64,000 nucleotides of DNA from Thermodesulfovibrionales bacterium (GTDB taxonomy: Bacteria > Nitrospirota > Thermodesulfovibrionia > Thermodesulfovibrionales > UBA9159), in NCBI GenBank assembly GCA_035686305.1, contig DASRZP010000103.1:3534-67533 (forward strand). The letters run 5' to 3'. Both the position numbers and the translations under genes were made by a program. Positions 1,454 to 33,858 of the stretch are shown piece after piece (the stretch's first letter is position 1; each line of letters opens with the position of its first letter). The notes beneath the pieces were generated by a model. That model made no database searches, was not told where the DNA came from, and saw only the letters and a list, made by a program, of their open reading frames with translations.

Positions 1454-1472
1454 CGCGCATGCCCCTGGCAGA

Positions 1473-2723: not shown

Positions 2724-3580
2724 CCCCTTCCCCCTCGTGCCTCGCCCAGGATAACGCTTTTCCCTTTCCTCCGCATGAACCCTTCGCTCTCCAGAGCATC
2801 AAGGTTCTTCTCAATCCTTTCCCGATCCATGTTCATTCGCCGAATCAACTCGGACTCGGGGATCTTCCCCTTCTCGACGAGCACCTTCAGGATCATCCCC
2901 CTGGCCTGTCTGTTGGAGCCATGAAAAGGCGTCTGCTTCTGATAATGGGCGCTCCTCCTGTTGGGGTTCTCAGATCCCTTTCCGAGCGTTACGCCATAAT
3001 CCATGAGGGCATAATACCACTCCCTCGGATCGGAGGAATCAAGGGTCTTTTCAACGAGCGGCATGATCTCCGTGTCTCTAATCCCTTCATGATCGTGGAA
3101 AAAGAAATGTATGAAGACCCGCCGGATATTGGTCTCGACGAATACTGTCGCTTCATTGAACGCAAAGGCAGCAATGGCAGAAGCAGTATATGTGCCGATT
3201 CCCGGCAGTTGCAATAATTCAGGAACCGTTGACGGGAGCCTTCCCTGAAACTCTGTCATGACGATACGGGCTGTCCTGTGGAGGGCAATGGCCCGCCGGT
3301 TGTATCCGAGCCCCTGCCACGCCCTCAGTATGTCGCAAAGCGGCGCCTCAGCCAGTGCCGGGAAGTCCGGGAACTTCTTGATGAACTCCCTGTACTTTTC
3401 GGTTACCCTTTCCACCTGTGTCTGCTGAAGCATGATCTCAGAAACAAGGATCCGGTAAGGATTGCGGGTCCTTCTCCACGGCAGGCTGCGGGGATGCCTG
3501 AGGTAGTGCCGGTAAATAATCCCCCGGAACTTTCGGACAGACCGCTCTGTAAGCCTCTGTGGCGTGAAAGTGACGTCCAC
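2720..3580 (-). CDS. HhH-GPD superfamily DNA glycosylase (MutY/EndoIII-like), apparently lacking the C-terminal Fe-S cysteine cluster
   Basis: Contains ILVSEIMLQQTQVERV and the helix-hairpin-helix LLQLPGIGTYTASAIAAFAF typical of MutY/Nth. No C-terminal Cys cluster is visible in the translation. Confidence 0.7.
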   Translation of the reverse strand: MDVTFTPQRLTERSVRKFRGIIYRHYLRHPRSLPWRRTRNPYRILVSEIMLQQTQVERVTEKYREFIKKFPDFPALAEAPLCDILRAWQGLGYNRRAIALHRTARIVMTEFQGRLPSTVPELLQLPGIGTYTASAIAAFAFNEATVFVETNIRRVFIHFFFHDHEGIRDTEIMPLVEKTLDSSDPREWYYALMDYGVTLGKGSENPNRRSAHYQKQTPFHGSNRQARGMILKVLVEKGKIPESELIRRMNMDRERIEKNLDALESEGFMRRKGKSVILGEARGGRG

Positions 3581-3593
3581 ACCTTCTCCGTCT

Positions 3594-5555
3594 TCATTTC
3601 CAATCAGGACTCTTTAAGAAGTCCTTGAGGCGACGGGGATCGTCAATGGGATCATAGCACCTTCCCTTCCCGCATGGAAGGACATACCCTTTATCCTCGC
3701 CGTACCGGATATAGGCGTGGGGCCGGAAACATGAGCGGGCCGTGTCGGCAAGGGCGCTGTCAGGAGATGCTTCAACAGAGAGCACAACCGAACGGAAATA
3801 GGCATCGGCTGCGCAGTAGTAATACCCGGCGTGAATGCCAAGTTCCTTTGCCTTGAGGGAGAAGGCCCTCAAGGCCCTCAAGGCATACTCATGGTATGAC
3901 TCTTTTTGCGTCAATGCAGCGAGCTTGTCCATGACGATAATGGCCACGGAGTTTGCCGAAGGATGAGGGATATCCTCGACGGACCTCAGCCTTAATCCGA
4001 GAACTGCATCCTCGGAATCAAAAAAACCTCCGTCATTTTCACTCCAAAACTTTCTCATGCATGTCTCCATAAGGTTATCGGCGGCCTCGAGATACCGCGC
4101 ATCACCCGTTATTTCATATGCGCCGACCTGCGCTTCGATAAGATCGATGTAATCATTCAGGAATCCCTTGACGCCATCGGAGTGATAAACTTCATTCTTG
4201 ATAACGCGCCTCCCGGTGAGTCTGTCGAGACTCGTGAGTGCGAAGTCTTTCAGTGACCCTTCCCCGAGTATTCTCGATCCCTTCAGATAGGCGTTTATGA
4301 GCAATCCGTTCAGCGACGTGTAGATCGTCCTGTCAATGAAAGGCTCCTCTCTCTTCCCTCTTGCCGCAAGTAATTTTCTCTTCCCACGATCTATCATTCC
4401 GCGGATAACCCTTCCCTCCCTGCCGGTCATCTGAGCAATCTGATCGGGTTCCATCGAGACAAAGAGCACCTTCTTCGCACTGTCATGGTGCATCGATCCC
4501 CTGTCATGGAGGAGATGGAGGGTGAGGACCTCTCGTTCCTCGTCGTCAAGGACCTTTCTGAAATCGCCGGCAGTCCAGGTGAAATACCCTCCTTCGTCGT
4601 CAGGGGTGACATCAGCGTCTTGACTCGCGTAAAATCCTCCCTCGGGATCGGTGAGTACTTCCCTGACGAATCTGACGATGCCTTCCGCCACCTCTCTGAA
4701 CAGGATATCGCCAAAGATTGCGTAGGCATCGGCATAATTCCGCAGAAGCCAGGCATTATCATCGGCCATCTTCTCGAAGTGAGGGATGATCCATGCCTCA
4801 TCCGTGGAATACCGGTGGAAGCCGCCCCCGATCTGATCATGAAATCCGCCCTTTGCCATCGCTTCAAGCGTCTTCTTCACGGCGTAGGCGGCATGTTCAT
4901 CCTGCTGAAAAAACGATCTGCACATGAGCATTTCCGTTGCCCCGGGCATCGGGAATTTGGGAAGCTTTCCGAAACCGCCGTGTTCGGCATCGAAATAGGA
5001 AAGGACCTCTTTTCCGGCTTCGTCGATCATGAACTGACTGATGTCGGCTGAGACCGTGGATTGATGCTTCATAAAGTCCAGGAGGCTGTCGGAATAGTCG
5101 GAAACCTCCTTCCTCTTCCGTCGGTAAAGCTGACTCACGGCAGCCAGTATCTTCTTGAAACCCGGTTTTCCGAATCGGTCCTCGGGAGGAAAGTAGGTCC
5201 CTCCGAAGAAAGGCTTCTTATCAGAGGTCAAGAACACGCTCAAAGGCCAACCGCCGCCCTGTCCCATAGCCGCTACCGCCTGCTGGTATCTCCTGTCGAT
5301 ATCAGGCCTCTCATCCCTGTCGAGTTTTATATTAATGAATCCTTCATTCAGGGTCTTGATGATCTCTTCATTTTCGAAGCACTCCTTTGCCATGACATGA
5401 CACCAATGGCACCAGATGGCGCCTGTGCTGAGGAAAACCGGCTTGTCTTCCTGCTCCGCCCTCAGGAAGGCCTCCTCGCACCACGGATACCAGTCGACCT
5501 GCTGGTCAGCAGCATGCCTCAGGTAAGCAGCTTTCTCTCTTGACAGCCTGTTCAT
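3594..5555 (-). CDS. thioredoxin-domain protein of the YyaL/DUF255 family (N-terminal Trx-like plus alpha/alpha-toroid domain)
   Basis: 653 aa. The N-terminus (DWYPWCEEAFLRAEQEDKPVFLSTGAIWCHWCHVM) is the characteristic DUF255 thioredoxin-like motif. Confidence 0.8.
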   Translation of the reverse strand: MNRLSREKAAYLRHAADQQVDWYPWCEEAFLRAEQEDKPVFLSTGAIWCHWCHVMAKECFENEEIIKTLNEGFINIKLDRDERPDIDRRYQQAVAAMGQGGGWPLSVFLTSDKKPFFGGTYFPPEDRFGKPGFKKILAAVSQLYRRKRKEVSDYSDSLLDFMKHQSTVSADISQFMIDEAGKEVLSYFDAEHGGFGKLPKFPMPGATEMLMCRSFFQQDEHAAYAVKKTLEAMAKGGFHDQIGGGFHRYSTDEAWIIPHFEKMADDNAWLLRNYADAYAIFGDILFREVAEGIVRFVREVLTDPEGGFYASQDADVTPDDEGGYFTWTAGDFRKVLDDEEREVLTLHLLHDRGSMHHDSAKKVLFVSMEPDQIAQMTGREGRVIRGMIDRGKRKLLAARGKREEPFIDRTIYTSLNGLLINAYLKGSRILGEGSLKDFALTSLDRLTGRRVIKNEVYHSDGVKGFLNDYIDLIEAQVGAYEITGDARYLEAADNLMETCMRKFWSENDGGFFDSEDAVLGLRLRSVEDIPHPSANSVAIIVMDKLAALTQKESYHEYALRALRAFSLKAKELGIHAGYYYCAADAYFRSVVLSVEASPDSALADTARSCFRPHAYIRYGEDKGYVLPCGKGRCYDPIDDPRRLKDFLKSPDWK

Positions 5556-6061
5556 GCCCTCTCTCTGATCTTCTTCATGGTCTCTCTCAAGAACGCGGGA
5601 AGATCGGCAGGCTGTCTCGATGTGACGAGATTTCCATCGACCACAACCTCTCTATCCTCGTAAAACGCACCGGCAGCCTTCATCTCTTTGGCTACGGACC
5701 TGTAGCAGGTCGCGTGCCTGCCCTTCAGCAGTCCTGCGGTGATGAGTATCTGGGGGCCGTGGCAAATGGCGGAGACGGGTTTCTTCATCTCAAAGAACTG
5801 TTGTGCGATCCTGACGGCGTCCTTTTCCTTCCGTATGGTTTCGGGCGCCCTGCCCCCGGGGAGAATAAGGATACCGTAATCAGAAGGACCGACCTCCCCC
5901 AGGGTCTTGTCAATCTCCACTTCATACCCGTGTTTACCCCTTATCCGGCCTTTCTTCATCGAGACAATATCCACGGCGACACCCTCTTCCTTCAACCGGT
6001 AATAGGGGACAAGGAGTTCCGTGTCCTCAAAATCGTCAGCGCTGATGATCAATGCCTTCAT
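5552..6061 (-). CDS. DJ-1/PfpI family intracellular protease or deglycase
   Basis: The track ORF 5552..6199 has a non-homologous N-terminal extension. The likely start is Met47 (ATG at 6061, SD AAGGGG upstream). MKALIISADDFEDTELLVPYYRL and the nucleophile-elbow motif AICHGPQIL are PfpI-like. The stop overlaps the yyaL-like start. Confidence 0.85.
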   Translation of the reverse strand: MKALIISADDFEDTELLVPYYRLKEEGVAVDIVSMKKGRIRGKHGYEVEIDKTLGEVGPSDYGILILPGGRAPETIRKEKDAVRIAQQFFEMKKPVSAICHGPQILITAGLLKGRHATCYRSVAKEMKAAGAFYEDREVVVDGNLVTSRQPADLPAFLRETMKKIRERA

Positions 6062-6112
6062 AACAATCACCCCTTTCCTTATGAGTGCACCCTGGAGTCG
6101 CACAAAACCTTT

Positions 6113-6180
6113 CTTCTTCGGAAAGGCAGGTATGGCGGGCTTCGATCCATGCCCTACCACCGTTTGCAACATAAGGTTGC
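6113..6180 (-). repeat. dispersed non-coding element, copy A (internally deleted version of copies B and C)
   Basis: Shares an identical 18-mer (gggcttcgatccatgccc, 6137..6154) with copy B (25335..25352). It also shares the flanking ttgcaaC-N-taaggtt block and the terminal (c)ttcgg(g/a)aaggcagg block. The central ~140 nt of B and C is absent. Confidence 0.55.
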
Positions 6181-6304
6181 ATTTTGTTTCCCGAAACACA
6201 GAGACAGAGGAGGCGCATCAGGGAAGTGAAGTCCTCCGCCTGTGGGTCAGCACGACTGAAAGAGACTGAGAAGTTTTGATAGTGAGATATGGCGTTCCCT
6301 TCTG

Positions 6305-6817
6305 CTACCACACTTCCCCTGTCCAGATATAATCGTTCTCCTTCTTCTTCTCATGACAACGCAGGCATACCTCGACCTTCCCTGACCCACGGGCCTTGCC
6401 ATCAGCAGCATACATTACCCAGAACCAGTCACCGCCTGCGGGATGATATCCCTTTATTCTGTACATCACGGTGAGGGCATCAAATCTTTTATCAGAGGTA
6501 TAATTCTCCTGGACAATGATTGAGTCATAGGCCATACCTGTTCTGTTCTTGATGGAACGGTAGGCCTCATCGTTCACAAAGGTCGTGAGCAGCTTGCCAT
6601 GGGGCTCTGCGCCTTTGTAAAGCCTCCCTTTGCCCGGCCACAGCTGCCACGCCCTGTAAGGGTTGAAGCGAATAATGTAATCGTTCAGTCTTTCTGCGTC
6701 TGGCTCCGGCATCGGAACCTGAGTCTCCGATGGTATGATCTCATGGATCGCCTCTCCACCATTCACGCCGGACAGCACAGCCAGCATTACGAGTAAGGGA
6801 AAGGCAAGCCTTTTCAT
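6305..6817 (-). CDS. secreted cytochrome P460-like monoheme protein
   Basis: Signal peptide MKRLAFPLLVMLAVLSGVNG (start taken at Met6 of the track ORF). A single C-terminal CLRCH heme motif is preceded by GDWFWVMY, as I remember for the P460 family. The family assignment is from memory, not from a search. Confidence 0.55.
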   Translation of the reverse strand: MKRLAFPLLVMLAVLSGVNGGEAIHEIIPSETQVPMPEPDAERLNDYIIRFNPYRAWQLWPGKGRLYKGAEPHGKLLTTFVNDEAYRSIKNRTGMAYDSIIVQENYTSDKRFDALTVMYRIKGYHPAGGDWFWVMYAADGKARGSGKVEVCLRCHEKKKENDYIWTGEVW

Positions 6818-9798: not shown

Positions 9799-9992
9799 TC
9801 GCCGAAAATGTCCTTGTGTGTGTTGATCCTGCCGGCTTTATAATCAGCCCTGGCCTCTTTCACGCTCCTGAGATATTCTGGAGATGTCATGGCAAGCAGA
9901 TCTTCAATGAACGCATCTCTATCTCTTTTCTTCATCTTCTTGACAGCACCGATAATCGCGTCCGCCGAAACCGGAACTTTAACTGCTAACAT
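9795..9992 (-). CDS. small antitoxin-like protein (partner of the truncated RelE/ParE toxin)
   Basis: 65 aa with SD GAGGAGG upstream. Its position and 4-nt overlap with the toxin remnant support the call. The C-terminus (EYLRSVKEARADYKAGR) resembles antitoxins of RelE/ParE modules. Confidence 0.5.
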   Translation of the reverse strand: MLAVKVPVSADAIIGAVKKMKKRDRDAFIEDLLAMTSPEYLRSVKEARADYKAGRINTHKDIFGE

Positions 9993-10231
9993 ATTTCCTC
10001 CTCGTTTTTGTAAATTCTAACATTCCTTATTGACTTGAGGATATCGTGGTCTATTCATTTCGCCTGCCCTAATGTCTATATTCGGCATGAATTACTTTCC
10101 ATATCTCCTTGCAAGTATTATACATTCATAGGCCTATGTCGGACCTGCAAATCCGCTTCACATCACATCCCTCACACTTCCTAAGCCTCGGCAAAGCATT
10201 GTCGCGTATCGCCCGGCCAGCCTTGATAACC

Positions 10232-12880
10232 TCAGACTCCGTTTTTTTTCAACAACTTCTCGTCCACTAACTCACGGACTGCAGCGCCCGCGCCCTTATC
10301 GAGACTATAGATTTCAACAAGGTCGGCTGATCTCCCCGCAAGCTGCTGGTACCCCATAGCATAGATATGCAGTTGCGTGCTTGTCACGTCTTCCTCCTGT
10401 GCGCGATCCGTAGACTTGAAATCGATAATTATTACCTGCTTTGTATCCGTTCTACGGATGAGATCGATGCGCCCATGTACCACAATGCCTTCGGCTAATT
10501 TCAATTCAACAGTCTTTTCCGCAAATTCAATTTTGTCCAGCACATCCGAATTCTCTCTCAGGTACTTGCGCATCACAATATCCGCCTGAGTGCGCATATC
10601 TACAAGCAGCTTGGGCCACGCGTAAGGCAGATGAAGATGGTCGTCAAGTAATCGGGGAACGTCGTCGGGCTTCAGATACTTGCCATCCAGCGCACGCCTG
10701 TGCACCTCGGCAAGGCAGTCATGCAGAGATTTCCCATACCCGAGTTTCTCATGAAACCCAGGATTGAAACCATACATGTACCTGAGCTTGAATTGATAAG
10801 GGCACTGGAAGTAGTACTTCAGTTCGGCGAATGTCAAAGGTATCTCGATATCAGCCTTTGCTGCCTTGGGCTCGATCTTGGCAATTGATGAAGGAGAAGG
10901 CTCCCTCGTCAGCACAAACTCCGATGCTGTAAATTCACTGACAAACGACGATTGACGCGAATAGTGCCCCGATGTTGCTTCAGGTGCCCAAGTGCAATAG
11001 AGATGCTTCTTGCTTCTCGTAAGGGCGACATAAAAGAGCCGTCGCTCATCTTCGACCGACCCAAGGTAACGCTCCGCTCCCTTTACGGCAGTCGGCGGGA
11101 TCACATGCCACCACTGCCGGCCCCTTGCACTCGGCGTCGGGAATCTGTTCTTAACAAGGTTCGGCAGGAACACGACCGGGAACTCCATCCCCTTGGCCTG
11201 ATGGATCGTCATGATCTGCACCGCATCGGGCGTCACAAAAGCCGCGTCTTCCCAACCCTCAGGGTAATAATCAGCAGCCTGATGCCGTAGAAAGCCTGCG
11301 AAGGCTGCATAAAGACTCTCTGCACTGCTCTGCCAATGGATCTCCTCAAAATCCGTGATCACCTGGCTAAACTTTCCGAGATTGTAATAGACAAGTTCAC
11401 CCCGGTTGCGGTCATGTACGCCGCGCCCAGGTATCGTGTCCTCTCTCAGCTCAATAACCCCAAGAAAACCCTGAAATGTCTGCTGAATGGAATAAGTTCG
11501 GTTGATCAGGCGGTTCGGCCAGTCAGCTTTTTCAGCATCGAGCCACCCAATCGCCCTCTGGAGCTTTGCGTCCTCAATCCCAAGGTTCGCGGCCTGCCAT
11601 GCCTTCCTCAGTTCATCTCCGGTGATCTCACCATTCAGATAGTAGACAATTGCTCTGGCAGCCAGAACTTCTGCCGCGTCAAAGAGACCGGCCCCGCCTT
11701 TAATCACATAAGGGATATTTGCTCGCCTGAGTGCGTCAACGACAGGACCTGCGCTATTCTTAACGCACCGAAGGAGGATTGCGCAATCAGACCATGTAAG
11801 TCCTCTCGAGTGACCTTCTTCCGTAAACGGTACACCGCGCATGGAAAGAACCTTCCCGACAATCCACTCCGCCTCAGCCTGTGGAGAGTTCAACCGACGA
11901 CAAAGTATGTCACCGTAATCGAAAGGTTGTTTCTCACTGCTCTCCATTCTTTTCGGCAGCCGATTGCGGTTCCTCTCCGCAATTTGCCTAGCAGTTTCTA
12001 CAACCCCTTTGCTACTACGGAAATTTTTCGCAAGTGGAACTTGATGGACATCCCTGTATCTCTCCTGAAAACCCAGAATGTTCTGGATATCGCTTCCATT
12101 CCACTGATATATCGTCTGGTCGTCGTCACCGACTACACGCACTTCTGCCCCTAGTTGATAAAGAAGCACCACAAGTGCTTCCTGAAGGGGGTTTACATCC
12201 TGGTATTCGTCTACGATGAGATATTTGACTCTGCCGGCTATCTTTGCTCTCAACTCAGCGTCGCTCTGGAGAGCAGTCACCGCCTCGGTCAGTATCCGAC
12301 TATAGTCAAGATAGCTTTTTCTATCGAGAAGCTGATTATATTTTTGAAGAGCTCCAGCAATTGGATGTGTCCCAAGCGCCTTATCGTCAATGAATGACTC
12401 TCTTATGATCGAGAGGCATCGTTGATACAGGCGAGAGTCCTGCCAACGCTTCAGAGATTTTCCATCGTGGGTGGCAAGGTCCGTCAGCCCTGACTCTTTT
12501 GAATGGCGGTGTATCAGAAGTCGCTGCTGTACATCGTTAAGAACTCTGTATTTCAGGAATCGATACTGGTATGTCTGAAGGAGATCCAAACAGAAACCGT
12601 GAATCGTGCCGACGAACATTTCGGCGAGGCCGGTACTTTGGCCCAACTGCTGGCGACAGAGTGTGTGTATCCGATCCTTGAGTTCCCCGGCGGCTTTTTC
12701 GGTGAAAGTAAACGCAATGATGTTTGGAGGGCCGATGCCTTCTTCAGCCTTGTCTTTAAGAAGCTTAACGACATGCTGTGCGAGCACGCGTGTCTTTCCA
12801 GAACCCGCGCACGCAATCACTTGAAGATTACCGTCCAAATGGTTGATTGCCTCAAGCTGCCGCTCTGTATAGTCCATCAT
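10232..12880 (-). CDS. UvrD/Rep-type SF1 helicase fused to a C-terminal PD-(D/E)XK (RecB/Cas4-like) nuclease domain
   Basis: 882 aa. It has Walker A (ACAGSGKTRVL), motif II (LIVDEYQDVN), TIHQAKGMEFPVVF and YVALTRSKKHLY. The C-terminal nuclease motifs are FQCPYQFKLRY, GRIDLI, IIDFKS and QLHIYAMGY. Its ATG overlaps the radC stop (ATGA, 12877..12880). Confidence 0.85.
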   Translation of the reverse strand: MMDYTERQLEAINHLDGNLQVIACAGSGKTRVLAQHVVKLLKDKAEEGIGPPNIIAFTFTEKAAGELKDRIHTLCRQQLGQSTGLAEMFVGTIHGFCLDLLQTYQYRFLKYRVLNDVQQRLLIHRHSKESGLTDLATHDGKSLKRWQDSRLYQRCLSIIRESFIDDKALGTHPIAGALQKYNQLLDRKSYLDYSRILTEAVTALQSDAELRAKIAGRVKYLIVDEYQDVNPLQEALVVLLYQLGAEVRVVGDDDQTIYQWNGSDIQNILGFQERYRDVHQVPLAKNFRSSKGVVETARQIAERNRNRLPKRMESSEKQPFDYGDILCRRLNSPQAEAEWIVGKVLSMRGVPFTEEGHSRGLTWSDCAILLRCVKNSAGPVVDALRRANIPYVIKGGAGLFDAAEVLAARAIVYYLNGEITGDELRKAWQAANLGIEDAKLQRAIGWLDAEKADWPNRLINRTYSIQQTFQGFLGVIELREDTIPGRGVHDRNRGELVYYNLGKFSQVITDFEEIHWQSSAESLYAAFAGFLRHQAADYYPEGWEDAAFVTPDAVQIMTIHQAKGMEFPVVFLPNLVKNRFPTPSARGRQWWHVIPPTAVKGAERYLGSVEDERRLFYVALTRSKKHLYCTWAPEATSGHYSRQSSFVSEFTASEFVLTREPSPSSIAKIEPKAAKADIEIPLTFAELKYYFQCPYQFKLRYMYGFNPGFHEKLGYGKSLHDCLAEVHRRALDGKYLKPDDVPRLLDDHLHLPYAWPKLLVDMRTQADIVMRKYLRENSDVLDKIEFAEKTVELKLAEGIVVHGRIDLIRRTDTKQVIIIDFKSTDRAQEEDVTSTQLHIYAMGYQQLAGRSADLVEIYSLDKGAGAAVRELVDEKLLKKNGV

Positions 12881-20167: not shown

Positions 20168-21491
20168 CAGGGAATTTGCCTCTCATCTTCTTGAGAGGGC
20201 TTTGAGCAGAGGCGCAGACCTTGCGGAAGTTTATCTCACGTCGGCAAAGAACCTCCTTGTGGAGGCAAAGGGTCAATCAGTCGAGGCTGTTGAGTCATCC
20301 ATCTCCTTCGGATATTCCCTCCGCGTTATTACCGATAAGAGACTCGGTTTCTCCTTCTCTACAGACCCCCGGGACGCTGAGAAGGTTGTCGAGAAAGCGA
20401 CCGAGACTGCGAGATGGACCGAGCAGGATGAATACCTCGATCTCCCCGGAGCGTCACCGGCGACGTCGGGAGGGATCTTCGATGAAGCAGTCGCCGCAGT
20501 GACCGAAGAAGATGCAGTCGCAAAGGCCCTTGCCCTGGAAAAGGCTGCCCTCGACTCCGACAGAAGAATTACGAAGGTGAGAAAGGCTTCTGCCTCCTTT
20601 TCATCGAGGGATCTGATGATCGTGAATTCAAAGGGCCTCCATGCGGCTTATCCAGCAACAGCCGCAACGGCCCAGATCACGGTCGCGGCCGAAGGTGAGG
20701 GCGACAGCCAGATGGGATGGGATTTTGACGGCAGCAGGTTTCTTACGAACCTATCCTTTGAGGCGGTGGGCAGGACGGCCGCTGAACGGGCGCTCCGCAT
20801 GCTCGGAGCCAGGAATATGAACTCACTCAAGGCACCGGTGGTGCTTGATAACTCCGTTGCTGTAGACTTCCTCGGAATCTTTTCTTCGCTCCTCTCGGCA
20901 GAGTCTGTTCAGAAGGGCAGATCGCTCCTTGCCCATCGGCTGAACGAGGAGGTCATGAGCCCCATGATAACGCTTGTTGACGACGGAACGATGAACCACA
21001 AACTCGGCAGCAGGCCCTGCGATGACGAAGGCACGGCAACTTCGAGAAAGAATCTCATAGAGGATGGCGTTCTTGTTGCTTATATGTACAATACTCGTAC
21101 CGCCAGGAAAGACGGTGTGAAATCCACCGGGAATGCCGTTCGGGGAGGTTTTTCATCGCTGCCTGCGGTGGGCCCTTCGAACCTCTTGCTGGCTGTCTCG
21201 GGGGAACATGTATATTCCGGAAATCTCTTTGACCTGCCGGAAAAATGCCTTTATGTCACCGAAGCCATGGGAATCCATACGGCAAATCCTGTGTCAGGGG
21301 AATTCTCTATCGGTGTTTCAGGCCTCTGGATTAAGAATGGAATTATCCAGCATCCCGTAAAGGAAGCCGTCCTTTCAGGGAACATTCTTGAGTTTTTCAG
21401 GAAGGTCGAGGCCGCAGGTGATGACCTGAGGTTCTATGGCAATATGGCCTCACCCGGTCTCCTCTTCGGCCCGACCGACATAAGCGCTTGA
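20157..21491 (+). CDS. TldD/PmbA-family metalloprotease
   Basis: 444 aa. The C-terminal GEFSIGVSGLWIKNG...PGLLFGPTDISA is typical of PmbA/TldD. It overlaps the queD stop. Confidence 0.8.
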   Translation: MRIDREFASHLLERALSRGADLAEVYLTSAKNLLVEAKGQSVEAVESSISFGYSLRVITDKRLGFSFSTDPRDAEKVVEKATETARWTEQDEYLDLPGASPATSGGIFDEAVAAVTEEDAVAKALALEKAALDSDRRITKVRKASASFSSRDLMIVNSKGLHAAYPATAATAQITVAAEGEGDSQMGWDFDGSRFLTNLSFEAVGRTAAERALRMLGARNMNSLKAPVVLDNSVAVDFLGIFSSLLSAESVQKGRSLLAHRLNEEVMSPMITLVDDGTMNHKLGSRPCDDEGTATSRKNLIEDGVLVAYMYNTRTARKDGVKSTGNAVRGGFSSLPAVGPSNLLLAVSGEHVYSGNLFDLPEKCLYVTEAMGIHTANPVSGEFSIGVSGLWIKNGIIQHPVKEAVLSGNILEFFRKVEAAGDDLRFYGNMASPGLLFGPTDISA

Positions 21492-21634
21492 TCAAGCTTC
21501 CAAAACTTCATGCTCTTCTGGTAGAATATGAAGTCCTATTATTCAGGAATGGTGAGTAGTCTGCGGTTAAGAGCAGACGTTGCCCTATCTTCTGCTGCTG
21601 TCGACGAGCTGCTGATGAGGTAAAGGGAGGATCG

Positions 21635-22798
21635 ATGATGGACTATTTTTTGACGGAAGAGCAGATAATGATACGAGACCTCGCGCGTCAAATCGCCGAA
21701 GAGAAGGTCGTGCCCGTGAGGGAAGAACTGGATGAGAAGGAAGCGTTCCCCTGGGAAATCGTGAAGGTCCTCGCCCAGTCTGACCTCTTCGGTCTCTTTA
21801 TTCCCGAGGAGTACGGAGGACTTGGCAAAGGGTGTCTCGAACTCTGTCTCGCTGTCGAAGAGCTCTCACGGGCCTGTGTCGGCGTCTCAACTTCCTATGC
21901 GGCAAATGCCCTGGGCACCTATCCCATCCTCCTTTTCGGGTCCGATGAACAGAAGAGACGATACCTCCCCGATATCTCAGCAGGTAAGCGCCTTGTCGCC
22001 TTCGGTCTTACTGAGGCAAACGCCGGCAGCGACGCAGCCGGGATCCAGACGACTGCAAAGCTGCAAGGCGATACGTATAATCTTAATGGCACGAAACAGT
22101 GGATCACGAATGGAGGCGAGGCTGAGATTTATACCGTCATCGCAATGACCGACAGGTCAAAGGGTCCAAGGGGTGCTTCGGCCTTCATCGTTGAAAAGGG
22201 GACCCCCGGATTCACCTTTGGGAAAAAGGAGCGGAAGATGGGCATAAGGGCATCCGTCACCCGCGAGCTCATATTCGATAATTGCAGAATACCGAAAGAG
22301 AACCTTATCGGCAAGGAGGGGATGGGGTTCATCGTGGCTATGAAGACCCTCGACAGCTCAAGGACCGGCGTAGGAGCCCAGGGCCTCGGAGTGGCGCAGG
22401 GAGCATTCGATGAGGCCGTCAAGTTTGCACGGCAGCGTGTCCAGTTCGGCCATCCCATCATCAGCTTCCAGGCGATCCAGCATATGCTTGCCGATATGGC
22501 AACGGAGATCGAAGCGGCCAGGGCCCTCATCTATTCCGTTGCACGCTATATCGACAGCGGTGCAAAGGACGTTTCAAAGGAGTCTGCCATGGCAAAGGTC
22601 TTTGCGACGGACATCGGGATGCGTGTCACAACAGATGCGGTCCAGATTATGGGGGGTTCAGGTTATATGAGGGAATACCCTGTTGAGAAGATGATGCGTG
22701 ACGCAAAGATCCTCCAGATCTATGAGGGGACGAACCAGATCCAGAGAAATGTTATCGGCCAGGAGTTGATCAAAGAGGCTGCGAAGAATAGAAAATAG
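21635..22798 (+). CDS. acyl-CoA dehydrogenase (short/medium chain type)
   Basis: 387 aa with GLTEANAGSDAAG, QWITNGG and IYEGTNQIQRNVIG (catalytic Glu region). Confidence 0.9.
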   Translation: MMDYFLTEEQIMIRDLARQIAEEKVVPVREELDEKEAFPWEIVKVLAQSDLFGLFIPEEYGGLGKGCLELCLAVEELSRACVGVSTSYAANALGTYPILLFGSDEQKRRYLPDISAGKRLVAFGLTEANAGSDAAGIQTTAKLQGDTYNLNGTKQWITNGGEAEIYTVIAMTDRSKGPRGASAFIVEKGTPGFTFGKKERKMGIRASVTRELIFDNCRIPKENLIGKEGMGFIVAMKTLDSSRTGVGAQGLGVAQGAFDEAVKFARQRVQFGHPIISFQAIQHMLADMATEIEAARALIYSVARYIDSGAKDVSKESAMAKVFATDIGMRVTTDAVQIMGGSGYMREYPVEKMMRDAKILQIYEGTNQIQRNVIGQELIKEAAKNRK

Positions 22799-22824
22799 CA
22801 TTTTTCAATTCCTGCGTTCTGAGG

Positions 22825-22849
22825 GCCCTGAAATGTTCAGGGCTTTATT
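22825..22849 (+). terminator. putative intrinsic terminator after the acyl-CoA dehydrogenase gene
   Basis: GCCCTGA-aatgt-TCAGGGC followed by TTTATT, about 25 nt after the stop codon. Confidence 0.5.
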
Positions 22850-22879
22850 GTTGATGCGAAAGACCGTATTGAGTATCGG

Positions 22880-23443
22880 ATGATCAGCTACAGGCTCGGA
22901 CATTTCCTCGACAGACCTCTTGGACCCATAGCAAAGAGGATCGCCATTGATCCCAACATCCTCACAATCTCAGGATTCCTCCTGACGACAACAGCCGCTC
23001 TTGTGATCCCCTTGAACCTCAGACTCGGCGGCCTTCTCATTTTCGCGGGGGGCATCTGTGATATGCTCGATGGAGTCCTCGCCAGGGTGAACGGCAGGGC
23101 AACGAGTTTTGGCGCCTTCCTTGACTCTCTCCTCGACAGGTATTCCGATGCCTTCATCTTTCTCTCCCTCGCCTGGTACCTCGGGGGACGGGGAGACCAA
23201 GCAGGCGCATTGCTGAGCATCGGGACCATGCTTGGAGCGCTCCTCGTCAGTTATGCACGTGCGAGAGGAGAGGGGCTCGGGATCGATAACCATGACGGGA
23301 TCATGGAAAGACCGGAAAGGATCATCCTCCTTATTGTCGCAGCACTAACCGGCTGGGTCGTGCCGATCCTCTGGGTCATGTTCGTTCTGACCCATGTCAC
23401 GGTCGTGCAGCGATCATACGCCGTCTGGAAAAGAGGAAAGTAA
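22880..23443 (+). CDS. CDP-alcohol phosphatidyltransferase family protein
   Basis: DMLDGVLAR...GAFLDSLLDRYSD matches the D-G-x2-A-R...G-x3-D-x3-D motif. The protein is polytopic. Confidence 0.8.
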   Translation: MISYRLGHFLDRPLGPIAKRIAIDPNILTISGFLLTTTAALVIPLNLRLGGLLIFAGGICDMLDGVLARVNGRATSFGAFLDSLLDRYSDAFIFLSLAWYLGGRGDQAGALLSIGTMLGALLVSYARARGEGLGIDNHDGIMERPERIILLIVAALTGWVVPILWVMFVLTHVTVVQRSYAVWKRGK

Positions 23444-23445
23444 CA

Positions 23446-23637
23446 TCACTCTGATTTTTCTGAAGCCTTCTCGATAAAGAAATGCATGAGAAACTCCTCG
23501 TCCTTAGGGGACAGGTTAAACTTGAACGAGCCTTCTTCGATCAACTTGAAGAGGGGGATCCCAGGATCTTCGAGATGAGCATCCGATATCCATTTGATCG
23601 CTTTTCTCAGTTGTTCGGCTTCGGGCAGTATGGTCAT
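23446..23637 (-). CDS. small hypothetical protein downstream of gatB
   Basis: 63-codon ORF starting 5 nt after the gatB stop. No motif was recognised and the SD is weak. Confidence 0.35.
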   Translation of the reverse strand: MTILPEAEQLRKAIKWISDAHLEDPGIPLFKLIEEGSFKFNLSPKDEEFLMHFFIEKASEKSE

Positions 23638-23642
23638 CGTGC

Positions 23643-25073
23643 TTATCCCACGAGTTTCTTCTTGAGGATATCATTTACGATCTGGGGATTTGCCTTTCCC
23701 TTTGTCGCTTTCATCACCTGACCAACGAAGAACCCCATAAGCTTTTCGTCGCCCCCCCTGAAGCGTTCAACCTCCTTAGGACTCTTTGCAATGATGTCGT
23801 CAATAGCCGTCTCAAGAGCGCCGGTATCGGAGATCTGGATGAGTCCCTTTTCCTCTACGATCATGGGAGCATCCTTTCCGCTTCTGTACATCTCCTCAAA
23901 GACGGTCTTGGCAATCTTTCCACTGATCGTCCCGTTCTCGATCAGCCTGATCATCTCAGCAAGCTGACGGGGTTTCAGCGCGCACTCTTCGATTGATCTG
24001 TTCTCGTCGTTGAGGATCCGCATCAGTTCTCCCATCATCCAGTTCGAGACTGCCTTGGGATTTGCTCCGGCACGAACAGCGTCCTCGCACCAGTCAGCCG
24101 TCGACTTCTCCGATGTCAGGAGGTCTGCGTCGTATTCGGGCAACCTGTATTCTGATCGAAAGCGTTCCCTCTTCTCATCGGGAAGCTCCGGCAGCGATCT
24201 CCTGATCTCGTCGATCCATTTCTGGTCCGCCGTGATCGGCACAAGATCGGGCTCAGGGAAATAGCGATAATCATGGGCCTCTTCCTTCGATCTCATGGAC
24301 TGCGTTGTCCCTGTCGAAGGATCCCACAGCCTCGTCTCCTGCACGATCTTTCCGCCCTCTTCAAGGGTCGCGATCTGGCGCCTGATCTCGTACTCCAGGG
24401 CCTTCTCGACAAACCTGAAGGAGTTGATGTTCTTCATCTCCACCTTTACGCCGAGTCCGGCGCTGCCGACAGGCCGTATCGAAACGTTCGCATCGCAACG
24501 CAACGAACCCTGTTCCATATTCCCGTCGCAGACGCCCAAATACCGTACGATGGTCCTGAGCTTCTTCATGTATTCCGCTGCCTCTCGGGGAGACCTGATA
24601 TCAGGCTCTGATACGATCTCCATTAGCGGGACCCCTGCCCTGTTCAGGTCCACAAAGCTGTAATTGCCGTTGCCCTCGTGGATATTCTTTCCCGCGTCCT
24701 CTTCCAGATGTATGCGGGTCAGTCCGATCCGCCTCTTCTCCCCGTCAACAATGATATCGACATGACCGTGTTCGCAGAGAGGGAGTTCATACTGGCTGAC
24801 CTGGTATCCCTTCGGCAGGTCAGGATAGAAGTAGTTTTTCCTCGCAAACCTGCTGAACGATGAAATCCTGCAGTTCATGGCAAGCCCCGTCTTGATTGTA
24901 AATTCGACGGCCTTTCTGTTCGCGACAGGAAGGACACCCGGCATACCGATACAGATCTGGCACGTCTGGGTGTTCGGCCCGGAACCGAACCTCGTGGGGC
25001 ACCCGCAGAACATCTTCGAATCCGTGAGCATCTGCGCATGCACTTCAAGGCCGATTACCGCTTCATATTTCAT
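23643..25073 (-). CDS. gatB: Asp/Glu-tRNA amidotransferase subunit B
   Basis: [25 protein letters not shown] is the canonical GatB N-terminus. 476 aa. Confidence 0.95.
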
Positions 25074-25192
25074 CTTTCCACCGCAGACACTGCCACAGAG
25101 GCACTGAGATAAAGGGCTGGCGAAGAGTTCATGGACATCTCTCCATTCTTCTCCGTGTCGTTCTTCACCTTCCCATAGTATAATCCTATCAT

Positions 25193-25409
25193 GTTCGGGA
25201 AGGCAGGCTTGGTGTGAAGCCCTGTATCGCGATTCCTTTCATTGTTGACGACTGCCGTTGTGTCCTCAATATGGGGAATCACCTTCCGTGAAGTCATCGA
25301 AGTACCCCGCTGGCGGAATCCCATCGCATCTGCAGGGCTTCGATCCATGCCCGCCTGACGATTCTTTGCAACGCTAAGGTTCATCCTTGTCGCTCCTTTA
25401 TAACTTCGG
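25193..25409 (-). repeat. dispersed non-coding element, copy B (full length, in the gatA-gatB spacer)
   Basis: About 215 nt, alignable by eye to copy C over its whole length at roughly two-thirds identity with few indels. The track ORF 25070..25447(-) covers it, but the equivalent frame in copy C has a stop and the peptides are unrelated beyond about 16 aa. Confidence 0.6.
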
Positions 25410-26852
25410 CCTCCTCTTGTGCCATTCCGTCGACCGTTCATAGGCATAGGCAGCCCTCAGTATCGTCTTCTCATCAAAATGCCTCCCGATCAGCTGCAGC
25501 CCGACGGGAAGATATTCGGAGGTGAAGCCGCAGGGGAGAGAGATCGCAGGCACCCCAGCCAGGTTGACGGATATGGTGAAGATATCTGAGAGATACATCT
25601 GCAAAGGGTCTTCCGTCTTTTCACCGAGTCTGAAGGCGGCTGTCGGAGAAGTGGGCGTCACTATGATGTCGACGTCCCTGAAGGCAGCATCGAAGTCCCT
25701 CTTGATCAATGTCCGCACCTGCTGTGCCTTCTTATAATAGGCCTCGTAATAGCCCGATGAGAGTGCATAGGTACCAAGCATGATCCTCCGCTTCACCTCA
25801 TCACCGAAACCCTTAGCCCGCGTGGCCATATACATTTCGAGCAGGTCCCTGCCCTGCTCCCTGAGACCGTACTTAACACCGTCATAGCGTGCGAGGTTCG
25901 ATGAAGCCTCTGACGTTGCGAGGAGATAATACGTAGCAATCGCGTAATCGGTGTGGGGTAATGAAACCTCCAACGGTATGGCGCCGAGGGATTCGAGCTG
26001 CTTTATTGCTCCCTTCACCGAGCTGTCCACATCGCCGTCCATTCCGGAGATAAAGTATTCCTTTGGGATCCCGATCCGTAAGCCCTCGATATCCTGCCCG
26101 ATGGCGACTGTGAAATCAGGGACCTCAATCGAGGCTGAGGTGGCATCATAGGGATCATGTCCTGAAATGACATTCATCACGATTGCAGAATCCCTCACAT
26201 CCTTTGTTATCGGTCCAATCTGGTCAAGGGACGACGCAAAGGCAACGAGCCCATAGCGAGAGACGCGGCCATAGGTGGGCTTCAGACCGACAACACCGCA
26301 GTGTGAAGCCGGCTGTCTGATGGAACCGCCGGTATCAGACCCCAAGGCGGCGATACATTCGCCGGCAGCAACTGCAGCCGCCGAGCCTCCGCTGCTTCCG
26401 CCGGGGATCCTCTCCGGGTCCCAGGGGTTCCTTGTGACAAGGAATCCCGAGTTCTCCGTTGACGAGCCCATGGCAAATTCATCGAGGTTCGTCTTACCCA
26501 CAAGTACGTAACCCTGTTCCTTCAGCCGAGACGTGACCGTACTTTCGTACGGCGGTATAAAATGTGAAAGAATCTTTGATGCACAGGTTGTCCTGATATT
26601 CATCGTGCACATGTTGTCCTTGATCGCCATGGGAATACCGAGGAGCGGCATGGAACAGCCCCTGTCCATCGTCTCCTGGGATTGAGCGGCCATGGTCAGG
26701 GCCTCGTCCTTTGTTATGGTGACAAAGGACCTGACGCGGTCCTCCACGGCCTCAAGCCGTTTGAAGACAGAGGACGTTACCTCTCCGGCCGTCACCTCTT
26801 TTTTGTCGAGGAGGGCCCTCAGTTCTGATATAACGAGTTCATGGAGTTCCAT
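25398..26852 (-). CDS. gatA: Glu-tRNA(Gln) amidotransferase subunit A
   Basis: Amidase signature [14 protein letters not shown] and a Ser-cisSer-Lys context. 484 aa. Confidence 0.95.
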
Positions 26853-27115
26853 CTCAAGATCCTTTCAGGGAGCAGCAAAGTGCTCTAGAGTTTAGCACTC
26901 TCACCGGGAAAATTGCAAAAAACTTCTACCACCCCTTCCGATGATGGAGGAGCATGTCTTTAGCCCCTTCTCCTGCCCAGCCCCCCACTTGCTGACTAAG
27001 GTGTGAAGTTGTTCCTTGAATGCCTGTAGATCCGCTATTGACACCAGTATAGAAGGAAGGCTCTGTCTCAATGGAGTGATTTGCAATTTCCCTTCCTATC
27101 CCGCATTATTAAGTC

Positions 27116-28279
27116 ATGGAAATTGTCCGTCTTCACCGCACGTCAAGAATACTCGCGGGCCATCTCTGGGTCTTCTCGAACGAACTTGCCGAGAGTCCGA
27201 AGAATCATGAACCTGGGTCTCTCGTGGAACTGCTCGACAGAAAGGATGCCTTTCTCGGGATCGGGTATATCAACCCCCATTCCCTTATTGCCGTGAGGAT
27301 TCTTACCCGCCAAAGGGAAGAGATCACCCACGATTTTTTCAAGCAGCGGATTCAGCATGCCCTTGATTACAGAAAACAGCTCGTGAAAGAGACGAACTCC
27401 TTCAGGGTGATCTTCAGCGAGGGAGATTTTCTTCCCGGTCTCATCGTCGACAAGTATGATGACTGCATCTCTCTCCAGATCCTCACAGCCGGCATGGAGA
27501 GATGGACCGATACTATCGTTGAGATCCTTGACCGTATCTTTGCTCCCTCAGGTATCGTCCTGCGTAACGATAGCTCAGCCCGTCTGCTTGAAGGGCTGCG
27601 ACGGGAGAAGAAGATGATCAAGGGTTCTTTGGATAGACATCCCGTAATCAGGGAAGGCCCCCTGCTCTTTGAAATAGACCCTATGGCAGGACAGAAGACG
27701 GGCTTTTTCCTTGATCAGAGGGAGAACAGGATGACCTTCAGCGACCTCGTTGGAGCGGGAGAGGGTCTCGACCTCTTCTGCTACGCCGGCGCCTGGGGCC
27801 TTCATCTTGCGAGCAGAGGAGCTGAAGTGACGGGCGTCGACGAGTCTGAAGGCGCGATTTCCCAGGCACAGAAGAACGCGGCCATGAACAATCTTTCGGA
27901 AAGATGCAGGGTCCGAAGAGGCGATGTCTTTCATTTCCTGAAAGAGGAAGTGCCGGCTGGGGCCCGTTATGACTTTATCGTCCTCGATCCGCCCGCCTTT
28001 GTCAAGGCCAGAACAAAGGTGAAAGAGGCCCTGAAGGGTTACCGGCAGATCAATGGGAATGCGATGAAGATACTGAAAAAGGGAGGCCTCCTTGCAACGT
28101 CTTCCTGTTCCTACCACATCGATAAAGAATCATTCCTTGCGATGCTGAGGGCGGCGGCTCGGGATGCAGGCAGGGAGGTGAGACTCATCGAGATGCGCTC
28201 CCAGGCAAAGGATCATCCCATACTCCTTTCGATGCCGGAAACAGAGTATCTGAAATGTGCGTTCTTAGAAGTGAGTTAG
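27116..28279 (+). CDS. class I SAM-dependent rRNA (cytosine-C5) methyltransferase, RlmI-like (PUA + MTase)
   Basis: 387 aa. The N-terminal PUA-like segment (GHLWVFSNEL), the SAM motif (LDLFCYAGAWG) and DPPAF are present. Confidence 0.85.
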   Translation: MEIVRLHRTSRILAGHLWVFSNELAESPKNHEPGSLVELLDRKDAFLGIGYINPHSLIAVRILTRQREEITHDFFKQRIQHALDYRKQLVKETNSFRVIFSEGDFLPGLIVDKYDDCISLQILTAGMERWTDTIVEILDRIFAPSGIVLRNDSSARLLEGLRREKKMIKGSLDRHPVIREGPLLFEIDPMAGQKTGFFLDQRENRMTFSDLVGAGEGLDLFCYAGAWGLHLASRGAEVTGVDESEGAISQAQKNAAMNNLSERCRVRRGDVFHFLKEEVPAGARYDFIVLDPPAFVKARTKVKEALKGYRQINGNAMKILKKGGLLATSSCSYHIDKESFLAMLRAAARDAGREVRLIEMRSQAKDHPILLSMPETEYLKCAFLEVS

Positions 28280-31744: not shown

Positions 31745-32767
31745 CTACTGGGAGACTTCATCGAGTGCCCTGAGAATGGCCGCCTCGCTAATATCCTTTG
31801 TGCCGACGAGGCGCACCGCCTTTTTTGTTTTCTCGTTGTTGACGACGACTGTGGGGGTGGCAGTGACCTTATAGGTCCTGGCAATTTCATCATAGAATTT
31901 TATTCCCCTGTTGGCGAGCATAAAACTCAGGGGTCTATAGGTGACGTGCAATGGAGTTATCGCCTTCTGAACATCTTCCGTTGACGGCTCCTTGGTCTTC
32001 TCTGTCAGGCCCATGAGCGCCCTCCTCAGTTCGAGGTACTTCTCTTTTTCATGGACAAGAAAGGAAAGGTTATAGGGAGTATAATTCAGCGATTCTCCAT
32101 GGATCGGGACATCGACAAAGACGACCTTGGCCCTTTTCCCGATGGCCGGGACCGTCCTCTCTATCTCCTGCTCAGCCTTGCGGCATGCCGGACAGAACCA
32201 GTCCGTCAAAATGAAGACCTCAAGGGAGCTGCTCTTATTCCCCATAATGATGTCAGGGATGTTCTCCTCAGCTTCACTCTTCTGAGCGCCTCTGTAAGCT
32301 ACATAGAACCCGACGGTAAAGACGATAACGATAACTGATAGCTTTCTTAATACCGGCATAACGGACATTCTCCTCTCTCTCATGGGATTCAGCGTAAAGC
32401 CTTTTATCTTTTCGAAAGAAACTATTGCGGCAGTGAAATACACTGTGGCAGCTACCCCGACACACAGCTTGCACCATTGCTGGATCTCATACTTCTGAAT
32501 GAGAATAAAGGCAAGTTCGGCCCCGCACGCCCCGAAGATCATGAGCAAGAAAAGCTGGGAGAAGATCCTCGATGAGATGCTGAGTTCATGGACAACCCCG
32601 GCTATGACAAAGAACGCAATCCCGACAATCGAAAAGGGGATTCCGAAGATGGCATACTTGTGCGCTTCAGCACAGGCAAATGTTCCGCAGAGATCGAGGA
32701 CCGATGCCACAGAGAGCGCGAGTCCGACAAGAAGAGAAGCCCGTGCGAGAAATCGCTTCGCCATCAT
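31745..32767 (-). CDS. VKOR-domain / thioredoxin-like (DsbA-type) fusion protein
   Basis: The N-terminal 4-5 TM region carries the Cys pairs CGTFAC and CKLC (VKOR-like). The C-terminal periplasmic Trx fold has a CPAC motif (DWFCPACRK). Confidence 0.75.
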   Translation of the reverse strand: MMAKRFLARASLLVGLALSVASVLDLCGTFACAEAHKYAIFGIPFSIVGIAFFVIAGVVHELSISSRIFSQLFLLMIFGACGAELAFILIQKYEIQQWCKLCVGVAATVYFTAAIVSFEKIKGFTLNPMRERRMSVMPVLRKLSVIVIVFTVGFYVAYRGAQKSEAEENIPDIIMGNKSSSLEVFILTDWFCPACRKAEQEIERTVPAIGKRAKVVFVDVPIHGESLNYTPYNLSFLVHEKEKYLELRRALMGLTEKTKEPSTEDVQKAITPLHVTYRPLSFMLANRGIKFYDEIARTYKVTATPTVVVNNEKTKKAVRLVGTKDISEAAILRALDEVSQ

Positions 32768-32845
32768 TTGTGCCTCCCTGTTGCTTTCTCCTTCATCATT
32801 CTATAATATCATATCCCATTGGCTGCCTCCTTATCTTCCCTTTGC

Positions 32846-32878
32846 ATAAAACGATCTTGTACCTGAAGGCAAGATCGT
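32846..32878 (-). terminator. hairpin plus U-run at the downstream (minus-strand) end of repeat copy C
   Basis: The minus strand reads ACGATCTTG-ccttcaggta-CAAGATCGT followed by TTTTAT, giving a perfect 9-bp stem. It lies about 80 nt upstream of the VKOR-DsbA start codon. Confidence 0.5.
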
Positions 32879-33076
32879 GAGAAGCCGTGTGTCGCGATAC
32901 CTTCGTTGGTTGCCGCGTGCTCACGTATACTCAATGCGGGCAGCCACCTTCGTCGAAGTCCTCGAAGTACCTCATTGCCGGACTCTCATAGCATGATACA
33001 GGGCTCCGATCGATGCCTGCCTGATAGGTTGCAACGGGAAGGTTTACCTTTCGCCGATCTCTGTTATATACTTCGA
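32851..33076 (-). repeat. dispersed non-coding element, copy C (full length, ends in a terminator-like hairpin)
   Basis: See copy B. Conserved blocks include gaagcc-N-tgt-N-tcgcgat, caccttc-N3-gaagtc-N-tcgaagtacc, cagggct(t/c)cgatc-N-atgcc-N-gcctga, ttgcaac-N3-aaggtt and tata-N-acttcg. Track ORFs 32906..33106(+) and 32931..33116(-) overlap it but have no conserved counterpart in copy B. Confidence 0.6.
33062..33070 (+). promoter_or_regulatory. extended -10-like box (TGtTATATA) 8 nt upstream of the mazG ATG; no SD
   Basis: The sequence is ctGTtTATATActtcgatcATG. No purine-rich SD lies between the box and the ATG, which suggests a leaderless or very short-leader mRNA. Confidence 0.3.
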
Positions 33077-33078
33077 TC

Positions 33079-33858
33079 ATGTCAAAGGATGCATTCCAAA
33101 GACTGATCGACATCATGGCTGCCCTTCGCGGCGAGAACGGCTGTCCATGGGACAGGGAGCAGACCAGAGAGTCTCTGAAGCCCTTCCTCGTTGAAGAGAC
33201 CTACGAGGTTCTTGAGGCGATCGATGAGGGCAAACCTGAAATGATAAAAGAGGAACTTGGGGACCTCCTCTTCCAGATCATCTTCCATTGCCGCATCGCT
33301 GATGAGCGCAAGGAGTTTACCATGACTGACGTAGCCGATGCGATTGCTGAGAAGATGATCGGAAGGCATCCCCATGTCTTTGGAGATGCCCGGTTCGAGA
33401 CCTCCGAGGAAGTCCTCAGGCAATGGGAGGACCGGAAAAAGGAGGAGGGGAAGAACAGGGAATCGATTCTTGAGGGGATCCCGAAGAGCCTCCCTTCCCT
33501 TCTCAAGGCGCACAGGATACAGGCGAGGGCGTCACGTGTCGGCTTTGACTGGAGACAGGTGGATGACGTTCTCGAAAAGCTCGAAGAAGAATTGCGGGAA
33601 TTCAGGACGGCCCTCGAAAAAAAGGACCAGAAAGAGATCGAAGACGAGCTTGGAGACATCTTCTTTGTCCTGGTGAATATTTCACGGTTCGTGGGCGTCA
33701 ATCCCGAGGATGCCCTGCGGAAGACGATCAGCAAGTTCATCTCGCGCTTTCGCCATATCGAGATGGCGGCCAGCGAATCGGGCAGGAAGTTGTCAGAGAT
33801 GACCCTCGAAGAAATGGATGCCCTTTGGGACGAGGCGAAGAAGAGAAGAAAAGGCTGA
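33079..33858 (+). CDS. mazG: nucleoside triphosphate pyrophosphohydrolase MazG
   Basis: LRGENGCPWDREQTRESLKPFLVEETYEV plus a second EELGDIFF repeat, i.e. the tandem MazG domains. Confidence 0.9.
   Translation: MSKDAFQRLIDIMAALRGENGCPWDREQTRESLKPFLVEETYEVLEAIDEGKPEMIKEELGDLLFQIIFHCRIADERKEFTMTDVADAIAEKMIGRHPHVFGDARFETSEEVLRQWEDRKKEEGKNRESILEGIPKSLPSLLKAHRIQARASRVGFDWRQVDDVLEKLEEELREFRTALEKKDQKEIEDELGDIFFVLVNISRFVGVNPEDALRKTISKFISRFRHIEMAASESGRKLSEMTLEEMDALWDEAKKRRKG

Follow-up and report, generated by a model that had tools for sequence, protein, structure and literature searches.

The spacer between gatA and gatB in the DNA analyzed here (a 64,000-nt stretch from a Thermodesulfovibrionales bacterium, hereafter the window) carries a sequence that is very likely, at a probability of about 0.87, a decayed copy of a new MITE family, that is, of a non-autonomous DNA transposon. 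The identification rests on terminal inverted repeats, target-site duplications, deletion derivatives, dispersed copies and empty sites. The sequence-only reading had left the choice between a structured RNA and a MITE-like repeat: these features favor the second, and the first is disfavored by mixed orientation, no net covariation, uniform decay and no match in Rfam. The copies measure 88-214 bp, below the 500-bp limit of MITEs, and have no conserved coding capacity; they also share with MITEs terminal inverted repeats, flanking repeats that vary from copy to copy, dispersal and orthologous empty sites.

Anatomy of the element and its insertion sites

The spacer is 324 nt long, close to the 325 nt or so estimated beforehand, and the element inside it (copy B, Table 1) aligns as proposed with copy C, the two being 71% identical over ~250 nt (blastn E 7e-34; nhmmer E ~1e-70 to 1e-80). 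The 18-mer of the right arm of copy B does recur at 6137..6154; the extent of the match was underrated, copy A being an internally deleted element with both arms, recovered near 6.1 kb in two pieces by an HMM made from copies B and C. The limits first drawn for copy B had to be moved, being 25-30 nt too far right of those set by terminal repeats and target-site duplications. The family escaped a generic repeat finder applied to the entire window, its copies being too diverged and gapped. What remains of the spacers around copies A, B and C is unique sequence, in which no further repeats were found. Weak nhmmer matches at 51309..51379, 10824..10858 and 55962..56023 (E > 0.05) were rejected; the one inspected is inside a coding ORF.

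Table 1. The gatA-gatB junction and the element copies of the window (window coordinates)
Feature	Position	Strand	Remarks
gatB	23643..25073	-	GatB_N and GatB_Yqey domains, 476 aa; N-terminus as in relatives
ORF104	25070..25384	-	AAGGAG 8 nt before ATG, right after gatA stop; spans the element; ATGA overlap with gatB
Pre-insertion spacer remnant, gatB side of copy B	25074..25163	-	unique sequence
Left target-site duplication of copy B, TTCA	25164..25167		fixed boundary rule
Copy B, 212 bp, gatA-gatB spacer	25168..25379		placed by anchors and target-site duplication; nhmmer E 4.6e-72
Left subterminal inverted arm of copy B	25201..25224		pairs with 25333..25356; 24 nt, 79% complementary
Right subterminal inverted arm of copy B	25333..25356		contains the 18-mer GGGCTTCGATCCATGCCC, also in copy A
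Right target-site duplication of copy B, TTCA	25380..25383		on the minus strand gives TG-A of the ORF104 start region (ATGAA)
gatA	25398..26852	-	Amidase domain, 484 aa; C-terminus collinear with relatives
Copy A, 88 bp, both arms kept	6090..6177		internally deleted; between cytochrome P460 gene and pfpI
Copy C, 209 bp	32834..33042		divergent spacer between VKOR-DsbA-like gene (31745..32767, minus) and mazG (33079..33858, plus)
mazG promoter-like site	33043..33072	+	TTTACC, 18-nt spacer, TATACT; conserved in relative L012

Similarity between copies drops sharply at both ends. One boundary rule was applied to all copies, the left end being set 7 nt before a GTTGCA-like hexamer (degraded in the left end of copy B), the right end 7 nt after TTGCAAC. 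So delimited, elements are 209-214 bp long, and deletion derivatives of 142 bp (locus L007) and 88 bp (copy A) keep both ends. The terminal inverted repeats are imperfect (left CCTTCCAGTTGCA, right TGCAACGTTAGGG, the reverse complement of the latter being CCCTAACGTTGCA), and in the consensus fold the two ends of the element are paired. They are followed inward by longer subterminal inverted arms, 24-30 nt in length and 79-80% complementary, which in copy B form the long closing stem of the folds. The GC content of the element is 51%, that of the window 53%.

The 4 bp that flank the element on either side are identical in eight copies out of nine (TTCA, TGCA, TCTT, TTTA, GTTA, TGAA, TTTA and TCTC), and agree at three bases out of four in the ninth, copy C (CTTA at 32830..32833, TTTA at 33043..33046). 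Pairing left and right flanks of mismatched copies gave 4 matches in 72. The flanking 4-mers are target-site duplications, mostly T-rich (TTTA, GTTA, TGAA, TTCA); as the ends are ambiguous by 1-2 nt, the duplication could be 4-6 bp long. In copy A the repeats are TGCA at 6086..6089 and 6178..6181.

The element is absent from the gatA-gatB junction in all four syntenic relatives, a comparison that had been suggested from the outset. The two genes overlap at ATGA in L011, and are separated by 15 nt in L013 and L019/L020 and by 70 nt in L012; their proteins are collinear with those of the window at the C-terminus of GatA and the N-terminus of GatB. Since these relatives are only 82-84% identical to the window in GatB, the empty junctions demonstrate insertion in the window lineage, not recent mobility. 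Two contigs, one of 80 kb from an ENA metagenome and the other from JGI, encode a GatB protein identical to that of the window; the next-closest GatB proteins are 84% identical at most. Over window positions 20643..28073, 7431 in all, the ENA contig (L001) shows ~10 differences (99.87% identity) and the JGI contig (L002) none; copy B has the same sequence in all three. The window and L001 probably represent different assemblies or strains of one population.

Genes around gatA and gatB vary. No gatC was called adjoining either gene, in the window lineage or in the syntenic relatives. Directly upstream of gatA lies an AMP-binding gene in L013, a divergently oriented PUA methyltransferase gene in L019. 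Downstream of gatB, at a distance of 5 nt, the window has a 63-aa ORF (23446..23637, minus strand; 4437..4628 in L001) with no Pfam match; no such ORF is present at this position in L011, L012 and L019, and L013 has there a barnase-like ribonuclease and barstar pair, inserted at 11655..12424. Upstream, at 1453..5001, L013 also carries a MmeI-type restriction-modification gene and, after it, a DUF4258/DUF2283 pair, both set between the PUA methyltransferase gene and the pre-gatA genes. The gat neighborhood seems to be an insertion hotspot.

The alignment of the window with L012 upstream of mazG runs up to GTTTACC, a sequence falling exactly at the right boundary of copy C (33042/33043) and its duplication, and then breaks. 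The TTTACC of the promoter-like site begins with copy C's right target-site duplication, so that the putative mazG promoter was not disrupted by the insertion. This site ends 6 nt before the mazG ATG, and the same sequence is found in L012 (~4461..4510) at a similar distance from the ATG; the mazG mRNA may be leaderless or near-leaderless. At copy A, the public PfpI/DJ-1 gene call (206 aa, start 6172; window 5552..6199, minus strand) starts inside the element. An alternative in-frame ATG at 6061, after GGGGTGA, gives a product of 169 aa, the typical size of PfpI; the annotated protein has probably been extended too far at its N-terminus, across the repeat.

Dispersal and orientation of the copies

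Other genomes were scanned for the conserved right arm GGGCTYCGATCSATGCC followed, after a gap of 8-18 nt, by TTGCAAC. The pattern had 0 matches in 185,579 GTDB species-representative genomes, in a scan that needs near-exact stretches; a scan of viral contigs gave 0 matches as well. A degenerate scan of representative genomes, derived from translated copies and likewise requiring near-exact stretches, gave matches to 55 patterns, none of which was confirmed, and a 'distant' search of PLSDB plasmids gave no match. The arm pattern was found at eight loci, on eight contigs of the JGI metagenome Ga0335070; nhmmer resolved them into five full-length copies and three partial or shortened ones. Proteins adjoining these copies all belong to one Thermodesulfovibrionales MAG at NCBI (HET6513896 to HET6516161), referred to below as the second MAG. 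A further, diverged copy adjoins lexA in a third metagenome (nhmmer E 4.5e-38), and surfaced as an 88-aa 'protein' in an exhaustive HMMER search with ORF104. The family sample thus amounts to about a dozen copies, from at least three metagenomes. No solitary terminal repeats were seen beyond the known copies in the ~300 kb of DNA examined.

Full-length copies of the second MAG are 95-98% identical to their own consensus, to which copies B and C are each ~80% identical. From these values the element appears to have multiplied in a recent burst in the second MAG, the copies of the window being old. One of the young copies (6234..6447 of locus L004, 5816..8091) is found in a ~770-nt gap between archease and rtcB, usually a tight pair. 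The partial copies in L006 and L008 were considered as possible ends of a full insertion sequence or of a TnpB/omega-RNA unit; their neighbors are MscS, OEP and aldehyde dehydrogenase genes, no transposases, and the idea was dropped.

Had only the window been available, where just three copies reside, two of them 71% identical, the similarity might be taken for a one-off segmental duplication within the contig, with no wider family behind it. The eight copies on eight contigs of the second MAG, and that of the third metagenome, reduce the probability of such a local event, which the sequence-only reading had itself named as the outcome that would count against it, to next to nothing. The flanks of the copies are moreover unrelated to one another, denoting insertions at non-homologous sites.

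Copies A, B and C share one orientation and lie upstream of minus-strand genes, as had been remarked. They might on this account belong to a structured non-coding RNA family, of cis-regulatory leaders or of small RNAs, situated 5' of gatB, VKOR-dsbA and pfpI. The regularity holds within the window, but not for the family. In the second MAG, orientation relative to flanking genes is split, L003, L009 and L010 lying on one strand, L004 and L005 on the other; among the eight copies with a clear context, three are co-directional on one strand, four are on the other strand, and one resides in a divergent spacer. The shared orientation of the window copies is a three-copy coincidence.

The minus strand of copy B folds better than shuffled sequences (z = -3.8), and in copy C one position has changed on both arms with complementarity kept (ATGG/CCAT to ATCG/CGAT), but copy C folds no better than shuffles (z -0.4 and -1.3). 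The RNAalifold consensus is a long hairpin made by the two arms, the covariation term of which is unfavorable (+2.17 kcal/mol), with double changes in 2 of 66 pairs, over seven sequences that give the test low power. Copies B and C have decayed uniformly, left arm, center and right arm retaining similar identity. With Rfam 15 the window had no match at gathering score, and neither copy B at E <= 10 nor the L009 copy at E <= 1 had a relevant one. Covariation and Rfam, two of the checks recommended along with the RNA hypothesis, gave it no support. Target-site duplications and empty sites are, in addition, unexpected for an RNA gene. Mixed orientation, no net covariation, uniform decay and no Rfam match lead to the conclusion that the element is not a strand-specific RNA, a reading which retains a slim chance of being right.

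The element is a long imperfect palindrome, and a young copy has a very stable fold as single-stranded DNA (z = -6.7). It is intergenic, and one of its ends frequently borders on the 3' end of a gene or overlaps it (L003, L004, L005 and gatA). These traits would suit a REP/BIME-type element mobilized by a RAYT, or a PATE-type derivative of IS200/IS605, the latter moving as single-stranded DNA hairpins. PATE, REP and RAYT elements make no target-site duplication, insert by a fixed short motif and are associated with a Y1 transposase. The 4-bp flanking duplications, by contrast, vary between copies, and neither IS200/IS605 nor RAYT chemistry is known to produce such duplications. The 212-bp unit is also far larger than REP units, and no Y1 transposase, TnpB or RAYT gene adjoins any of the copies. 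Hardly any credit can be given to movement of this type, and identification as a MITE is retained below.

Reading frames across the gatA-gatB junction

Two versions of a reading frame cross the spacer on the minus strand, ORF104 (Table 1) and a 125-codon one (25070..25447), which ends, as had been described, in an ATGA overlap with gatB. The public entry for ORF104 is 'MAG TPA: hypothetical protein VFG09_11790 [Thermodesulfovibrionales bacterium]'. Either version could encode a real small protein, translationally coupled to its neighbors gatA and gatB, such as a divergent GatC-like subunit. The strong Shine-Dalgarno sequence and the overlap with gatB are what such a gene would have, ORF104 is annotated by the ENA, JGI and NCBI gene callers, and its frame is the sole one free of stops among 42 copy-by-frame combinations. 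Against a real protein, ORF104 has no Pfam match at E <= 0.01, and matches only itself among 5.8 billion proteins. One marginal match (E 4.7e-5), the translation of another repeat copy, came from an exhaustive HMMER search that covered 1.84 billion representatives. The frame of ORF104 contains 1-3 stops in the other copies, all five young ones included. Codon positions 1, 2 and 3 hold 17, 12 and 14 of the 43 differences from the consensus, an even distribution (p = 0.64). In the four relatives, there is either no room for an ORF at this place, or only an unrelated one of 19 codons (L012).

Identity with GatC in particular is supported neither by Pfam, where ORF104 has no match, nor by homologues, none being found in the two protein searches. 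A 322-aa protein, P0133, also returned by the exhaustive search, highly repetitive and made up by tandem units of ~50 aa (GIHIQIGTTLHNSGYTRDT...; E 4e-4), looks like a chance match due to low complexity, unrelated to the element. That the spacer encodes a functional small protein is accordingly very improbable. Earlier arguments for a non-coding nature are borne out: no frame of copy C is free of stops, and the lack of true homologues of ORF104, the stops in other copies and the flat distribution over codon positions place conservation at the nucleotide level.

Removal of copy B along with one TTCA leaves a spacer of 108 nt (25074..25163 + 25384..25397 + TTCA). The reconstructed spacer contains a 32-codon ORF, which starts 8 nt after the AAGGAG behind the gatA stop and ends in the gatB ATGA overlap. 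Element and duplication together amount to 72 codons (216 nt), with no stop when read in frame with this ORF. No terminator-like site is predicted in the gatA-gatB spacer, and gatA, copy B and gatB presumably share one transcript. On leaving gatA, ribosomes would initiate anew at AAGGAG/ATG, cross the hairpin-forming 212-bp insert, and stop in the gatB overlap. After landing in a small coupling ORF, copy B would have lost its in-frame stop(s), with no frameshifts. Translation across the insert, rather than the peptide, may have been preserved to keep gatB coupled, a suggestion to be taken as tentative.

In a neutral simulation the frame stays open in copy B in 4.6% of the cases. This figure must be discounted, the true chance being higher, because copies B and C share the loss of one of the two consensus stops. 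It is on the whole unlikely that copy B has been retained in an adapted form, as a MITE tolerated by selection for being translated and not for an encoded product. The unrelated 19-codon ORF of L012 is found in its 70-nt spacer (9931..10000); small bridging ORFs may recur at the gatA-gatB junction, or their presence may be due to chance.

Mobilization, related elements and significance

In cut-and-paste DNA transposons generally, a transposase acts at the element ends and the target is cut in a staggered manner. By analogy, a transposase encoded elsewhere would recognize the terminal inverted repeats, excise or copy the element, and insert it at a staggered 4-bp cut, repair of which would leave the 4-bp direct repeats. 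In this manner copy B would have entered the gatA-gatB spacer, then ~108 nt long; copy C would have inserted at the mazG promoter's edge, and copy A upstream of pfpI, its center being lost afterwards. We infer that the family was mobilized in trans by a transposase making 4-bp staggered cuts. Copies A, B and C, at ~80% identity to the family consensus, are by now relics and probably immobile. No autonomous element, nor a transposase gene with matching ends, was found in the ~300 kb of DNA examined.

Members of the IS1380 family, distant relatives of piggyBac, end in CC and generate duplications of 4-5 bp. The MITE starts with CC and is flanked by T-rich 4-bp duplications (TTTA, GTTA, TTCA), and we assume an insertion sequence of this family to be a possible parent, but no transposase linking both was found. 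The IS5 and IS701 families also make 4-bp duplications.

Prokaryotic MITEs are shorter than 500 bp, have terminal inverted repeats, direct repeats flanking the younger copies, stable stem-loops and size variants (PMC10969869). The family described here shares with them size, terminal inverted repeats, direct repeats, intergenic location, a stem-loop if transcribed, variants with internal deletions and the lack of a transposase of its own; with a GC content of 51%, it differs from 'typical' MITEs in not being AT-rich (PMC10969869). Its sequence is unrelated to all entries of the Rfam, PLSDB plasmid and GTDB representative collections as searched here, and no parent insertion sequence was found. 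In the account given by PMC10969869, citing Chen et al. 2008, Chunjie, a MITE from Geobacter uraniireducens, is 178-235 bp long and occurs in size variants and partial copies. It resembles the present element (212 bp) in size, in the variants, and in having a copy inside an operon which does not abolish the operon, as copy B and the archease-rtcB copy of L004; the host belongs to another phylum, and the likeness is one of description. Rickettsia palindromic elements (RPEs) and other MITEs create in-frame fusions (PMC10969869). Copy B is similarly a palindromic repeat read through in frame, but RPEs are found inside real protein genes, while here the frame is a tiny unconserved spacer ORF, open in one of ten copies.

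A full-text literature search for MITEs in Nitrospirae returned nothing. The present data add a MITE family for Thermodesulfovibrionales (Nitrospirota), the family being new and the kind of element well known. The unusual spacing of gatA and gatB has a mundane cause, the insertion of a MITE; the 104-aa 'hypothetical protein' VFG09_11790 is an artefact of reading through the repeat, and so, probably, is the 206-aa pfpI call. The recent-burst copies, 95-98% identical, could aid MAG binning, strain typing and the search for the transposase. If translation through copy B is indeed preserved, polarity would be prevented and subunit stoichiometry kept in an essential amidotransferase operon, and the stop-free copy B provides a small, testable example of an essential operon tolerating an insertion.
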